Source: Eledone cirrhosa (lineage: Eukaryota). From it: a DNA stretch of 64,000 nucleotides. The stretch spans positions 22,258,001-22,322,000 of the forward strand of contig OZ024741.1 of NCBI GenBank assembly GCA_964016885.1, read 5' to 3'. Positions 14,174 through 34,059 of the stretch are shown here, piece by piece. Made by a program: the position numbers and the translations under genes. The notes under the pieces are model-generated. The model worked only from the letters and a program-made list of their open reading frames with translations. It made no database searches and was not told the origin of the DNA. Each line of letters begins with the position of its first letter. Position 1 is the first letter of the stretch.

Positions 14174-14554
14174 TATAAATAAAACATATTTATAACCATT
14201 TAACGTCTGTCTTCCCAGCTACCAGCCGTTGGACATGTCACAAATCAAGTGGTATCGCAGTTATTGATCTCTCGGACATTACACTATTCTACAGTGTGTA
14301 TTGGTAGTGATGTAGCTACAGTGTGTGCCGCCAGCCCTTCAGTTTGCTGCCCCTCTGGACCCCAACAAAAATGCATATTGCTCTCAATATATATATATAT
14401 ATATATATATATATATTAGAAAGTGAGGTTTTTTTTTACAAAATGAAAAATAACCGAGGTGTCCTACACGAGTGAAAGTATAAAGAAAAAGAGATGAAAT
14501 CGAAAATGCAACTGGAGTCTTATTTTTTTAAAAAATATATATATTTATTTGGTT

Positions 14555-14592
14555 CCTTTACCGGTTTCGCAGTTCTTCTGCTTTTCAAAAGG
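14555..14592 (-). ncRNA. Mirror copy of the minimal hammerhead motif
   Basis: Exact reverse complement of 14776-14813. Confidence 0.75.
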
Positions 14593-14775
14593 TGAGTTGA
14601 GATGGAGGGTCTGTGGTTTTTCTCACATCTGGTTGGTCTCTGAATGTTACTTGTTTTATATGGAAAAAGTGGCTCGAAATGCCAGGTTTTTCGAGCCACT
14701 TTTTCCATATAAAACAAGTAACATTCAGAGACCAACCAGATGTGAGAAAAACCACAGACCCTCCATCTCAACTCA

Positions 14776-14813
14776 CCTTTTGAAAAGCAGAAGAACTGCG
14801 AAACCGGTAAAGG
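14776..14813 (+). ncRNA. Minimal type I hammerhead ribozyme motif, U3-A8 variant
   Basis: CCTT [TTGAAAA] GCAG-AAGAA-CTGC [GAA] ACCGGT [A] AAGG: stem I CCTT/AAGG, stem II GCAG/CTGC, palindromic stem III, GUA site. Confidence 0.75.
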
Positions 14814-15139
14814 AACCAAATAAATATATATATTTTTTTTAAAAATAAGACTCCAGTTGCATTTTCGATTTCATCTCTTTTTCTTTATATATATATATAT
14901 ATATATATATATATATATATATATATATATATATATATATATATATATACATACATATACATATATATATTGATAACCTTGACCGACCAGTCTGTTGGGC
15001 GACGATTGGCGCCGCTAGTCACAGCACGTCGTGCTGTTTTAGCCATATATATATACATATAAATGAAATATATATATATATATATATATATATATATATA
15101 TATGAGAATAAACGTTCTGCGTGGTTGCATATGGGTTAC

Positions 15140-15403
15140 ATATGAATAAAGTGGTCCTTCATCAGTGATCTTTCAACCATCATCGTATTCCTTCGCTTTA
15201 AAGACCATATACCTGCGGTTCTTCCTCACTTTTCGTTGCTTCACCATCTTTGTTTGTTTACACTCTCGCTGTTCCCTTTATTTACGTGTCCCAACGACTT
15301 TCTTTAGCCGTTGCTCGCACCAACCGGAGGTATATGGTCTTTAAAGCGAAGGAATACCGATGATGGTTGGAAGATCACTGATGAAGGACCACTTTATTCA
15401 TAT
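15140..15403. repeat. Inverted repeat, arms about 81 bp, spacer about 100 bp
   Basis: 15140-15220 vs 15322-15403 with few differences; flanked by (TA)n. Confidence 0.92.
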
Positions 15404-15556
15404 ATATATATATAACCCGTTTTACGTGTGTTGTGTTGAAGCAAATAACTATGTGTATACTCTGGGAATGTATCTTACATTGCCCATGAAGTACGCTGAG
15501 ATACAACCGGTACTGGCATTGATAAATAAGCTGGGTCCGTCAACTCCTTATTATAT

Positions 15557-17660
15557 ATATTGTTATACTTTGGGATGGTCATGTTGCCAATAAGAAACAC
15601 ACGCACCAGTTGCTTTCACTCCAATTTATTATAAATTAAAAAATTCTTTTTTTTTTAATTTATAAATTTCCAGTTGGTTGGTTGGTTCCACAACCGGACG
15701 GTTGTTCATATATTGTCAAAGTTCTTTCGTCACACATTCTGTGACCTCTTCAGTGACTGGGATTCTTTTCTTTGTTTTGTGCCTCTCCTTTGTTCTGTCC
15801 TACGCCATCTTGTCTGTGTGTGTGTTGTGTGCTTAGTTTGCGCATGTGTTACATCCGGGTGTCTGTGTGCGTTTTTATTTGTTTATTTTATTTGTTTCTT
15901 TACATGTTACTGGTTGGTTGTTTGTTCTATGTGTGTGTGTTTTCATTTTGTCCTTAATTGTAAGTTGTGATGTTACTATTCCATTCATGTTTTCTATTTA
16001 ATTTTGGTTGGAGTTTATTTATGTTTATTGCCTCTGTGATTTGTCTAAACATTGCGTCTTTTCTGTGTGTAGATTTTATTTTTATTTCTATGTTCTCTAA
16101 TTTGCCCTTATGTTCTATTTTAGCATGTTGGTGGAGTACTGATGATTATTTTCTATCTTGAAGCTCTCGCCAGTGTTCATTAACCGTTCTCCTATACTAC
16201 GAGCTGTCTCACCTATGTACACTATATTCTTATCTTTACATTGTCCTTCAGTACATCTTATGCTACATACTATGTTTCTAGTTTTACAGTTAATATGGGG
16301 GCTTAGTTTACAGATTAAGCATTTCTTATCTATACAGGGAGGTCTTTGAAAAGGGTATGTATTACTAATAAGTGTTTTTATGGAGGTACCTGGTCTTTCT
16401 ACTATCTTAATATTAAGTTTAATTTTATCTAGGGCCCTTCTAAATTTGTAAGCTAATTCACTTCTAGGGGTTGTATTGATGAACATTACACTCTGGTATA
16501 TATTGCTATAATACCATGAGTTTATTCTATTAACCTTATTCCTAGTTCTTTCTATTCTATTCCAAAATTTGCTCCTATACAAGGGGCAGGTCCCATTTGT
16601 ATCATTATTTACCATTTTTTCCCATTTGGTTCTGGCTCCTCTATATACTCTGATTTTATCTCTCTGATTGTAACCAGAGAACTGCATACGGTGGATGAAG
16701 TGTTGTATGTGTCTCTCTAGTTCTTTGGGGTTGCACATGCGGGACACGTTTCTCATCACCCGTACTAAATCCGCAATCAGTATGTTGATTTTGGTGTGAT
16801 CCGAAACAGTTGAGTTTCGGTGGATCAAATATTTGGAAGTCTTGGGTTTGGCATAATGGGAATGGGCGATTTGTTTTTTGTTATTAATGGTTTCTAATCA
16901 GATCTCTGTGTCTAGTACAGGTAATCGATGGTTGGGGTGTTTGCTTGGGTAGTCTATAGTAACTCTAATACTCTGGTGGATGGAGTTAGCTATTTGCTGG
17001 ATGCTTTCCATGGTGTTTTTCTCTAATTGCTGACTGTTCTCTAGTGGAGGTGTTTTTACTACGATGTTTATATCATCAACGTAGCGAGAGTACATTATCA
17101 GGGTTAAGAGGTTGCTGTCTTCTAATTGTTCTTTAAGTTTATTGTCCCACCATACCATGAATAGGTTAGCTATGTCACCTGCAATGCTAACACCACTGGC
17201 TGCTCCCTCCTCTTGGGCATATTTCCATTAAATTTGAACATATATTCCTTAAGGGTTAGTTTTATACTGGTCCCCACCGCATGTGAAATCATTTTCTTTA
17301 GTTCATCGTGGTTTTCGGGGGTTCGTATGGCTCTGGTCCACCCATTCCATCTTTCTGTGTGGGTTTTCTTGGCCATTGAGGTAATGGTAGGTGGTCTGCC
17401 TCTTACTAGTCTTGTGGTTCTAAGGTCATACGTATCTAGATAATAATTACTATAAGTAAGTTTAAGTAGGAGTCCCAGCTCACTGGTATCAATCCCACGG
17501 AATTCAACATTGCTCTCACTGATAGTTAGTTTCTAGCGTAATGCTCCGATCTTTCTCTCTTTCTGTAGACCACTGGGGTCTGTTGATAGTGGTGAATCTT
17601 TCACATAGCTTGTTCTGTAGTGGAGTGCTCCGATGTCTCTGTTGCTAAGGTGGGAAAATA
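15557..17660 (-). mobile_element. Decayed Penelope-like element (RT + Cys-rich linker + GIY-YIG; Neptune-like)
   Basis: RYVDD (16898-17158), LPVLD, CxxxxCxxC linker, NIV..C...YIGETARS, and frameshifted C-terminus RQITEA..LNRKHEW near 15980-16070. Confidence 0.9.
15715..15757 (-). ncRNA. Hammerhead ribozyme motif in the Penelope 3' pseudo-LTR
   Basis: GTCA [CTGAAGA]G GTCACA-GAATG-TGTGAC [GAA]A GAAC T T TGAC. One extra nt after the core; minimal stem III. Confidence 0.7.
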
Positions 17661-32268: not shown

Positions 32269-32449
32269 TAATTGTTTCTACTTTTGGCACAAGGCCAGCA
32301 ATTACCCAGTGCATTACTGGTACTTTATTTTATCAACCCCGTTGGATGAAAGGCAAAGTTAACCTCGGCAGGATTTGAACTCAGACCATAAAGGGGCGTA
32401 ACTCTATGCTGCAAAGCATGGCGTCTGACCCTCTACCGATACTGCCAAT
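32269..32449 (-). mobile_element. SINE family A
   Basis: Reverse complement of the family consensus. Confidence 0.85.
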
Positions 32450-32889
32450 GGAGAAACATTTGTTACCTTCATTTTCACTACTACAGACTTTTAACAAAGG
32501 ACCCACTGTATATATGTGTATATAAACGCACATATGTGTGTATATGTATACACATGTGTGTATGTGTATACATGTATGTGTGTATGTGTGTGTATCTGTA
32601 TTTCGGTTTATGTCTCATAACTTAACATTTCAAACAAAAATGTATCCTATAATATAAATACTGGGGTTGATATAACCGACTAAATCAAGGTGATGCCCCA
32701 GCATGGTTGCAGTCAAATGACTGAAACAAGTAAATATACAAATATACATATATATAAGCAAAGAGAGATATTTAATTTGTTGGTTATTCAACAAATTTAT
32801 TTATAACAGATTCAAAGCACTCTACAAGTTTTCTGGAGTATAATATCAATGATATTAATAAATGGAAACTATATTTATAAAACCATATT

Positions 32890-32950
32890 TATTTTATTAT
32901 ATATATTTCAAGGGTACCAACATTTTGGTACACTCTCATCAGATAAAATA
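32890..32950 (-). ncRNA. Mirror copy of the hammerhead motif
   Basis: Reverse complement of 33017-33077. Confidence 0.85.
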
Positions 32951-33016
32951 CAAACTGAACCTGAACCGATAAGGTCTGGTTTCTTGGATATGTCACCATT
33001 TATAAAACAAATTTTG

Positions 33017-33077
33017 TATTTTATCTGATGAGAGTGTACCAAAATGTTGGTACCCTTGAAATATATATAATAAAATA
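33017..33077 (+). ncRNA. Type I hammerhead ribozyme motif
   Basis: TATTTTAT [CTGATGA] GAGTGTACCAA-AATG-TTGGTACCCTT [GAA] ATATATAT [A] ATAAAATA: perfect 8-bp stem I, 10 of 11 pairs in stem II, palindromic stem III. Confidence 0.85.
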
Positions 33078-33802
33078 AATATGGTTTTATAAATATAGTT
33101 TCCATTTATTAATATCATTGATATTATACTCCAGAAAACCTGTAGAGTGCTTCGAATCTGTTATAAATAAATTTGTTGAATAACCAACAAATTAAATATC
33201 TCTCTTTGCTTATATATATGTATATATATACACACAAATGGAAGTTCAGTAAAATTGAAGTTGTGGCTGTGGCCAAGCTAATGATATACAATCAGGTATG
33301 TGCAGCAAAGCACTCGATAAGGTTGTGTCACCTTAGAGTAATAACATTTGTTAGAAAGCTTAACAAATTGAAGACTGCGACCGGTGAGCCAGCCACATGA
33401 ACCAAAGCAACATGAAATCCAACTCATGTAATTGACAAACCTGGACCATCTCATCGATATTATGCAATATCTCCGATAGTTTTCTATGAATATATATATA
33501 TGAACACATACACATACACGCACAAACATATATAAATACATATACACAATGGAGAGATGTTCAGATACTGAAAAGTAGGTTAGCGTGATAACTCATATGA
33601 TCTGAGCTGATGCAGTGAGAGAAAAACTTTTTTTTTTATATCAACTTTTTCAGTAGTGGCCAGATTGTTGTGAAAATTTAATGTAAAACTTAAGTAAAGA
33701 CTATAATTTTTAATGTGGTGCCATTTATAGTAATGTTTTGTACTTTTTAATGTCTTCTTAATGCTTTACAGGACATTAAGAGCTAATATATCTTAAATAT
33801 AA

Positions 33803-34059
33803 TTAATTAGAAAGTGAACAAGACAAAATATATTACTCCATTACCAAAGGTTTCTGGATCACAGACGATAATAATATATATGTCTGGATCGTTCGTCAGA
33901 TGTTATGGATAAAAGATATGAAATGAAATTTCATTTCATATCTTTTATCCATAACATCTCTATCTGACGAACGATCCAGACGTATATTATTATCGTCTGT
34001 GATCTAGAAACCTTTGGTAATCGAGTAGTTATATTTTGTGTTGTTCACTTTCTAATTAA
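33803..34059. repeat. Loopless fold-back palindrome centred at 33928/33929
   Basis: gaaatgaaa|tttcatttc centre; arms about 126-131 bp with several substitutions and a 6-nt indel. Confidence 0.95.
33958..34025 (+). ncRNA. Type I hammerhead ribozyme motif (somewhat decayed; mirror copy at about 33836-33903 on minus strand)
   Basis: CTCTAT [CTGACGA] AC GATC CAGACG-loop-CGTCTG T GATC TA [GAA]A CC-TTT-GG T [A] ATCGAG. Base of stem II is mismatched. Confidence 0.7.

Follow-up and report, generated by a model that had tools for sequence, protein, structure and literature searches.

Three palindromes (P1, P2, and P3) in a 64,000-nucleotide stretch of Eledone cirrhosa DNA, hereafter the window, carry a minimal type I hammerhead motif on each arm, both motifs of P3 being damaged, which raises the question of whether such hairpins are mobile units in their own right or remnants of something larger. 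It is very probable that each palindrome consists of two short, hammerhead-motif-bearing 3′ ends of an endonuclease-encoding Penelope-like element (PLE), joined head to head at a TA-rich site; each was likely formed de novo by one insertion event. The palindromes themselves are real, as first described, with arm identities of 99% in P1 (14479–14679/14689–14889) and 98% in P2 (32737–32954/33013–33230), and 89% in P3 (33800–34062), all three being near-perfect. The limits originally assigned to P1 (14479–14889) and P3 (33803–34059) leave out a tail on one side of each, and the 58-nt "spacer" of P2 is the 5′ part of its right arm. The features are as follows.

14386–14416, no strand: (TA)n sequence, the target flanking P1 on the left
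14417–14478, minus strand: P1 tail (62 nt), the 3′ extension of the family-1 pseudo-LTR, on the left arm only
14479–14695, minus strand: P1 left arm, a 5′-truncated pseudo-LTR of putatively Neptune-type PLE family 1, 9-nt loop included
14555–14592, minus strand: P1 left-arm minimal type I hammerhead motif with a U3-A8 core, 4-bp stems I and II, and a palindromic stem III
14673–14695, no strand: P1 centre, a 7-bp inverted repeat with a 9-nt loop
14689–14889, plus strand: P1 right arm, a tail-less pseudo-LTR copy terminating in (TA)n
14776–14813, plus strand: P1 right-arm minimal type I hammerhead motif (U3-A8), predicted cleavage after 14809
14890–14970, no strand: (TA)n sequence, the target flanking P1 on the right
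32742–32954, minus strand: P2 left arm, pseudo-LTR plus tail of putatively Hydra-type PLE family 2
32890–32950, minus strand: P2 left-arm hammerhead motif
32948–33225, plus strand: P2 right arm, pseudo-LTR plus tail
33017–33077, plus strand: P2 right-arm hammerhead motif
33800–33931, minus strand: P3 left arm, a tail-less pseudo-LTR of putatively Hydra-type PLE family 3; hammerhead boxes present within it, 6 nt of stem I lost
33926–34062, plus strand: P3 right arm, pseudo-LTR
33964–33970 and 34007–34019, plus strand: P3 right-arm hammerhead boxes, one substitution breaking stem I
34063–34125, plus strand: P3 tail, on the right arm only

A strict scan for type I hammerheads, covering the window on both strands, returned four cores, at 14780 (+) and 14588 (−) in P1 and at 33025 (+) and 32942 (−) in P2; among 20 dinucleotide shuffles, 17 gave no core and 3 gave one. 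The P1 and P2 motifs, with core boxes, stems I and II, and a palindromic stem III, are putative ribozymes, the P1 core being the U3-A8 variant rather than CUGANGA. A complete hammerhead had been ascribed to all three palindromes, but P3 failed both hammerhead scans and, compared with family copies, has a damaged stem I in both arms. Extending the search to five other palindromes of the window, as had been suggested, yielded no core, and the 101 Rfam matches at E ≤ 1 included no hammerhead family, only miRNA-type hairpin noise. The sense copy does lie in the downstream arm of all three palindromes, which follows from any head-to-head join. Each strand holds one sense hammerhead and, upstream, its full and exact antisense, inside a duplex of about 200 bp (201 bp), and the folding energy is −347 kcal/mol for the hairpin versus −7.5 kcal/mol for the hammerhead fold. 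Judged from these energies, a unit-length circle would not be expected to offer a foldable ribozyme in both polarities, the hallmark of a viroid-like RNA. Given that one hammerhead per strand is buried in the duplex, the layout is neither viroid- nor retrozyme-like, contrary to what had been proposed.

The palindromes are not stand-alone units; by sequence comparison, every arm is the pseudo-LTR at the 3′ end of a high-copy PLE. P1 appears to come from a Neptune-type family (family 1), and P2 and P3 from two Hydra-type families (families 2 and 3), which bears out the suspected origin of these protein-less sequences from several PLE families. The view that the hairpins stand alone without an ORF holds locally, in that tblastn of the three parent proteins against the window gave no match, but the arms are the 3′ ends of ORF-bearing elements elsewhere.

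Family 1 is represented by 10,850 exact copies of the 34-nt ribozyme core in a genome-wide pattern search. A 775-codon open frame, in which 16 of 150 scored matches fall, encodes in a single frame both RVT_1 (5.4e-7) and GIY-YIG (2.6e-6), each above the Pfam cut-off, and intact copies with reverse transcriptase (RT) and C-terminal GIY-YIG are present. An upstream 409-codon frame (ORF1), for which Pfam gave no match, overlaps the RT frame in −1 over a T-run. The layouts of three loci (L104–L106) display the architecture of endonuclease-positive (EN+) PLEs, namely partial tandems of the pseudo-LTR, an internal hammerhead, a tail, and an inverted 5′ copy. In full-length copies the tail sequence runs directly into ORF1 (78 exact junctions), and the P1 left arm plus tail is 96–97% identical over 279 nt to the 3′ ends of two such copies, L105 and L106. 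The translation contains the CX2-5CxxC linker and CCHH motif by which Neptune is defined in PMC8557442; this assignment draws on linker and cysteine motifs, and Nematis is also possible.

In families 2 and 3, the ORF is physically linked to the hammerhead end, more weakly in family 3. Thirteen of the 15 family-2 loci found through the upstream UTR have the P2 arm downstream on the same strand, and seven carry Hydra-type EN frames. At 20 ORF-end loci of family 3, the P3 arm lies downstream in eight (one being the query locus) and an inverted copy lies upstream in five; it occurs either way in 12, and eight have no arm within the stretch retrieved. The translations of both families show the CxCX5C linker, no CCHH, and CxxC plus CxH near the C-terminus, as expected of Hydra; the retrieved copies stop short of the N-terminal part, where the RWK and DKT motifs of that clade would lie. 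Among the copies examined, only broken frames were found, with no intact ORF, and the fragments have no Pfam match. A narrow pattern found at least 49 exact family-3 matches, which is an undercount.

How the arms are joined bears directly on their origin. At 78 family-1 loci, there are 40 head-to-head pairs and 42 unpaired arms; 31 of the pairs combine a tailed with a tail-less arm, nine have one broken end, and none is two-tailed. Two-tailed pairs make up 2/8 in family 2 and 1/9 in family 3, P2 being such a minority case. The arms of a pair are of the same sequence type and differ at 61 of 3,255 sites (1.9%), versus 4.2% between family-1 loci. Head-to-head joins share 0–7 nt, and in P1 the microhomology, a 7-nt overlap, is supplied by a 7-bp repeat of the parent 3′ UTR, the inverted repeat and its loop pre-existing in the parent copies compared. 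Target-site duplications are unreadable inside (TA)n.

The preliminary description held that hairpins of this kind may form a mobile class of their own, for which many copies with the same junction would speak, and named PLE 3′ ends in the arms together with unique centres as the signs of ordinary truncated insertions. The arms do correspond to 3′ ends of PLEs that carry ORFs, and the exact P1 centre occurs in two places in 3 Gb, compared with 10,850 cores. On its face, junction sharing favours propagation, since 887 family-1 palindromes have their centre within the same 8-nt window, and among the first 50 of these (tallied by eye) centres A, B, and C recur 20, 11, and 8 times. Yet the sequence type and the tail-bearing arm differ among loci with the same junction, which is impossible for one self-copying unit: exactly one tail is present in 37 of the 39 loci with these centres, but it sits on the longer arm in 13 and on the other in 6 for centre A (6 and 4 for centre B), and centre A is found in at least four sequence types. 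The palindromes thus likely arise afresh rather than from a copied master. Short copies, moreover, share sequence types with full-length ones, and minimal hammerheads require a second sense copy according to PMC4209133, whereas here a single one per strand lies within the duplex. A self-propagating class of ribozyme hairpins is already largely refuted and very improbable. An assembly artefact from fold-back chimeric reads is scarcely credible: although no record in four public runs spans a whole palindrome (contigs are short and repeats collapse), the arms differ by real substitutions and indels and end at two fixed biological sites, and contigs of two public runs, which may be from the same sample as the assembly, run through unique flanking sequence and on into the inverted left arm of P2 and that of P3. 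Read depths over the palindromes in public runs do not equal copy numbers.

Within the PLE origin, the mechanism somewhat favoured here begins with the element protein, which would cut a (TA)n target on both strands. Each target 3′ end would then prime reverse transcription at one of two RNA start sites, with or without the tail. The two start sites of family 1 terminate in TATA-like words, which could base-pair with the target. The two cDNAs would halt early, in half of the cases at a fixed site, and their ends would anneal through microhomology, followed by fill-in. According to PMC11167929, a PLE protein from an anole acts in vitro on both strands of its target, cutting and extending them, and starts reverse transcription at two sites that bound the tail. 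The hammerhead would lie near the palindrome centre only because it is 40–80 nt from the stop site, and the palindromes are likely dead ends. P2, being two-tailed, is not predicted by the two-start-site rule. A rival route from the same PLE origin, plausible but with less in its favour, is that one cDNA (or antisense template) snaps back so that its own 3′ end primes the copying of the second arm, the endonuclease resolving the product at the second site. Self-priming of this kind was proposed for head-to-head PLE palindromes (PMC3846280), and it accords with the sequence type common to both arms and with the P1 centre, a pre-existing 7-bp hairpin whose loop is retained on the tail-bearing arm in P1 and one further locus (L182). 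It sits less well with the longer arm being tail-bearing in some pairs and tail-less in others, with "loops" of 0.8–2.5 kb (L061, L157), and with centre C, which has no loop. Genomic copies do not discriminate between this route and the joining of two cDNAs.

The early stop is seen among short copies but in none of the full-length ones. In family 1, 62 of 122 copy 5′ ends fall in one 19-nt window, which precedes the ribozyme core by about 40 nt (~42) and in P1 corresponds to 14738 on the plus strand; the count for the upstream pseudo-LTRs of 29 full-length copies is zero. In families 2 and 3, 5′ ends are also clustered. Folding, examined for long-range pairing that might cause the stop, gave just a weak 4-bp stem. 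Initiator-like words match exactly at the stop in families 2 and 3 but not in family 1, a weak lead because such words are common. That all RNAs start at the hot spot was rejected, given that none of the 29 full-length copies begins there, and a separate lineage of short copies was unsupported, as no sequence type is peculiar to them and full-length copies carry the same types. The clustering would also suit a SINE-like, non-autonomous monomer with its own start site, of which the palindromes would be double insertions. This is improbable in view of the shared sequence types and of the anole PLE protein, which needs RNA beyond the tail (PMC11167929) that short copies lack. The contrast between 62 of 122 and 0 of 29 hints at two RNA templates. 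As a tentative and rather doubtful extension, a protein dimer might prime both target strands, one at each of the two start sites of the same RNA. Palindromes and short run-off copies would then come from a linear RNA starting ~42 nt upstream of the core, and full-length copies, none of which stops there, from a seamless template (a hammerhead-made circle or multimer). In the literature searched, mostly outside subscription journals, neither two-template evidence nor twin priming was reported for PLEs.

The architecture is already in print (PMC4209133, PMC3846280, and PMC8557442), including hammerhead pairs on opposite strands, the U3-A8 core, pseudo-LTRs joined head to head, and the tail. EN+ PLEs with an inverted 5′-truncated copy likewise have a palindromic join, a tail at one end, (TA)n targets, and a pseudo-LTR hammerhead, but both copies here are too short to retain an ORF, and the tail is 60–90 nt rather than 30–40 nt (PMC3846280; PMC8557442). 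Schistosoma mansoni PLEs carry dual minimal hammerheads 100–700 bp apart on opposite strands, and many single motifs from truncated copies, with the same core variant; from these, as described in PMC4209133, the present case differs only in host and family. Family 1 shares with the Neptune clade RT plus C-terminal GIY-YIG, the linker, two cysteines inside GIY-YIG, and (TA)n targets, but has the upstream 409-codon frame overlapping the RT frame. Families 2 and 3 share with the Hydra clade, for example Hydra-1_Obim (PMC8557442), the CxCX5C linker, the lack of cysteines inside GIY-YIG, CxxC and CxH around the E and N residues, and (TA)n insertion, and family-3 RT motifs look similar to those of Hydra-1_Obim by eye; they are nevertheless different families with different hammerheads, of which broken copies alone were found. 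Metazoan non-LTR retrozymes (PMC7229834; bioRxiv 10.64898/2026.07.22.740005) are also short, protein-less, PLE-related, and equipped with type I hammerheads, but they are head-to-tail tandems giving circles from two same-strand ribozymes, in contrast to the head-to-head arms with one sense ribozyme per strand seen here. The first 100 family-1 cores (tallied by eye) include 20 close pairs, all minus-then-plus, and no same-strand neighbour within 2 kb, hence no head-to-tail tandem with a hammerhead per unit.

A new mobile class, or a novel mobile RNA, does not stand, and junction recurrence by itself is no proof of self-propagation. What the locus leads to is a young, apparently Neptune-type family of more than ten thousand copies, with many frames intact, which provides statistics on PLE insertion: a strict one-tail rule, microhomology joins, and a fixed 5′ stop not seen in full-length copies. 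The two-template reading, if true, would be genomic evidence for the circular PLE intermediate proposed in 2014, and family 1 is a candidate for in vitro work on inverted-copy formation and the role of the hammerhead.

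A search of the window for palindromes confirmed the three reported in the preliminary description, each made of two head-to-head arms, and five further palindromes scanned for a hammerhead contained no core (four are listed here, the fifth, 41574-41810, below):

14479-14889: palindrome P1
32742-33225: palindrome P2
33800-34062: palindrome P3
26751-27110: palindrome without hammerhead core
51413-51662: palindrome without hammerhead core
54458-54942: palindrome without hammerhead core, formed by two copies, in opposite orientation, of a repeat frequent in the window
56437-56841: palindrome without hammerhead core

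The complete hammerhead ascribed to each of the three is present in P1 and P2 but not in P3. A strict type I scan of the 64 kb gave four cores, on both strands of P1 and P2 (0-1 cores in 20 shuffles), the former being of the U3-A8 variant and having stem II start from a G-C pair, the latter of the usual type with G-U in that position. P3 retains the hammerhead boxes, but comparison with copies of its family shows damage to stem I in each arm; its stem II begins beyond an unpaired 2x2 loop. Stem III is short and palindromic in all three, and an Rfam search recognised none of these hammerheads.

Across the 3.0-Gb assembly (1,796 contigs), the 34-nt P1 core is matched exactly 10,850 times (a control gave 0), and the P2 and P3 arms have 2,709 and 1,670 candidates, respectively; 40 were scored for each arm, with about 94-98% identity at the best place of each candidate. 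Single arms account for 12 of the 20 best matches in family 2 (that of P2) and 15 of 24 in family 3 (that of P3; one duplicate locus removed). Walking upstream from the P1 core leads to the end of a GIY-YIG frame, which as a query gave 150 scored matches (97-100%), 16 of them within a 775-codon open frame. The full parent Penelope-like element (PLE), family 1, is visible in four fetched regions, and its frames in one locus, L105, are as follows:

L105 4015-5244: first frame of 409 codons (complete in two of the four regions), no Pfam match
L105 5154-7481: second frame of 775 codons, reverse transcriptase (RT) and GIY-YIG by Pfam

In all four regions the frames overlap in -1 at a stretch of six T and one A (around position 5175 of L105), likely a programmed frameshift; according to the legend to Fig. 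1 of PMC8557442, some PLEs have an ORF1 with a frameshift. In its linker and endonuclease motifs, family 1 fits the Neptune definition of that paper. A 1.5-kb 3' region terminates in the pseudo-LTR and its 3' extension, the tail, and the fetched regions also hold partial pseudo-LTR tandems and inverted 5' copies. The P1 left arm, with 62 nt to its left, matches this 3' end at 96-97% (L105, L106) and 92% (L104), and the right arm ends at the tail-less site. The tail of full-length copies continues directly into ORF1.

For family 2, the P2 arm lies downstream in 13 of 15 loci found with the upstream UTR, and in seven of the 15 there are frames for a Hydra-type endonuclease together with a CxCX5C linker, in some cases decayed. 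A second Hydra-type ORF precedes the P3-type arm, which is downstream in 8 of 20 ORF-end loci and present as an inverted copy upstream in 5 (12 overall). Neither family has an intact frame among the loci examined. Their motifs fit the Hydra clade as described in section 11 of PMC8557442, whose supplement includes a Hydra family from an octopus.

The palindromes had been proposed to be self-propagating ribozyme hairpins, a mobile class of their own, for which shared centre junctions would be support. The exact P1 centre occurs twice in the genome, as is to be expected, since it pre-exists as a hairpin in the parent. The first 100 core matches reduce to 76 loci once 8 duplicates are merged; with P1 and its twin added, this set yielded 40 pairs joined head to head and 42 arms without a partner. 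Some of these unpaired arms are long copies whose partner may be outside the fetched stretch. Thirty-one pairs join a tail-bearing to a tail-less arm, nine have a broken end, and none is two-tailed; (TA)n flanks most pairs, and the joins commonly share 0-7 nt or carry a short insert. Divergence is 1.9% between the two arms of a pair and 4.2% between arms from separate loci (30 pairs). Of 122 5' ends, 62 fall inside a 19-nt hot window about 27-45 nt upstream of the core, and a genome pattern search found 887 family-1 palindromes centred there. Among the first 50, 20, 11 and 8 share the three commonest centres, which looks like support for propagation, but 37 of these 39 have exactly one tail, which in asymmetric centres lies on either arm (13 vs 6; 6 vs 4), and each centre occurs with at least four sequence types, with the two arms agreeing in nearly every locus. 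Sequence type and tail side would both be constant had a master been copied; since both vary, identical centres are re-formed each time, and the self-propagating unit is not upheld. Short copies share their sequence types with long and full-length ones. One locus of the centre labelled A has an extra 12-nt duplication.

The 5' stop is absent from full-length copies. Of 78 exact tail-ORF1 junctions in the genome, 30 were examined and 29 aligned; no upstream pseudo-LTR starts in the hot window, 21 extending beyond it and 8 ending short (Fisher p = 2e-7 against the first sample, 62 stopping and 46 passing, which was selected for an intact core). The template of long copies therefore lacks that stop. 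A promoter at the stop may give linear RNA, the first pseudo-LTR yielding run-off copies and long copies coming from RNA that is circular or reads through; alternatively, RT may stall at this site during its first pass alone.

According to PMC11167929, an anole PLE protein, predicted to dimerise, cuts and extends both target strands and prefers AT-rich DNA; that element has two RT start sites, which bound the tail, and a hammerhead dispensable for insertion in vitro. Two cDNAs could be primed from both target ends and then joined through microhomology, which agrees with the rule of one tail per pair and with its position on either arm. It is also possible that snap-back makes the second arm, as proposed in PMC3846280. 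Two-tailed pairs, the exception to the one-tail rule, make up 3 of 17 in families 2 and 3, P2 included, in samples picked for their similarity to the query. Closeness to the common 5' stop explains why the hammerhead lies near the palindrome centre. Two partner arms (L068:2300-2389, L071:1576-1720) start at most 3 nt from the predicted cleavage site (reference 4841, 4843).

The viroid- or retrozyme-like layout does not hold either. A transcript through a palindrome has a single sense motif preceded by its own antisense, so cleavage would be unlikely and no unit-length circle could be excised; in folding, the hairpin reaches -347 versus -7.5 kcal/mol for the hammerhead. Retrozymes, according to PMC7229834 and bioRxiv 10.64898/2026.07.22.740005, are tandem repeats.

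Other elements of the window are the following:

41574-41810: head-to-head insertion, the fourth, within (TA)n; only its right arm bears a tail, and the hammerhead scan gave no core; in one locus, L119, the arm is preceded by a Hydra-like endonuclease frame
1083-3250 (+) and 56798-58585 (-): LINE-type RT frame, two copies about 90% alike (RVT_1, 3.6e-33)
16118-16897 (-): 260-codon frame with a GIY-YIG-like motif at its end (by eye), no Pfam match, likely another broken PLE
7646-8173 (-): 176-codon frame, presumably resembling the end of a Tc1/mariner transposase, no Pfam match

As the fourth insertion lacks a core, the ribozyme may be dispensable for the fold-back form. Families 1 and 3, otherwise dissimilar, share the 11-nt word CACTTTCTAAT, with which the tail of the former (14417-14430, -) and the tail-less arm of the latter (34050-34060, +) end, directly preceding the TA target.

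Minimal hammerheads paired on opposite strands at a distance of 100-700 bp, the U3-A8 variant and a predominance of single motifs from truncated PLEs are all reported in PMC4209133, where minimal hammerheads are inactive as monomers, and PMC8557442 describes PLEs with an inverted truncated copy, a tail and a (TA)n bias. Penelope families are listed in a repeat annotation of an octopus (PMC13282606), whose passages on them mention neither hammerheads nor palindromes. The Eledone palindromes thus represent three new PLE families displaying an already known insertion form.
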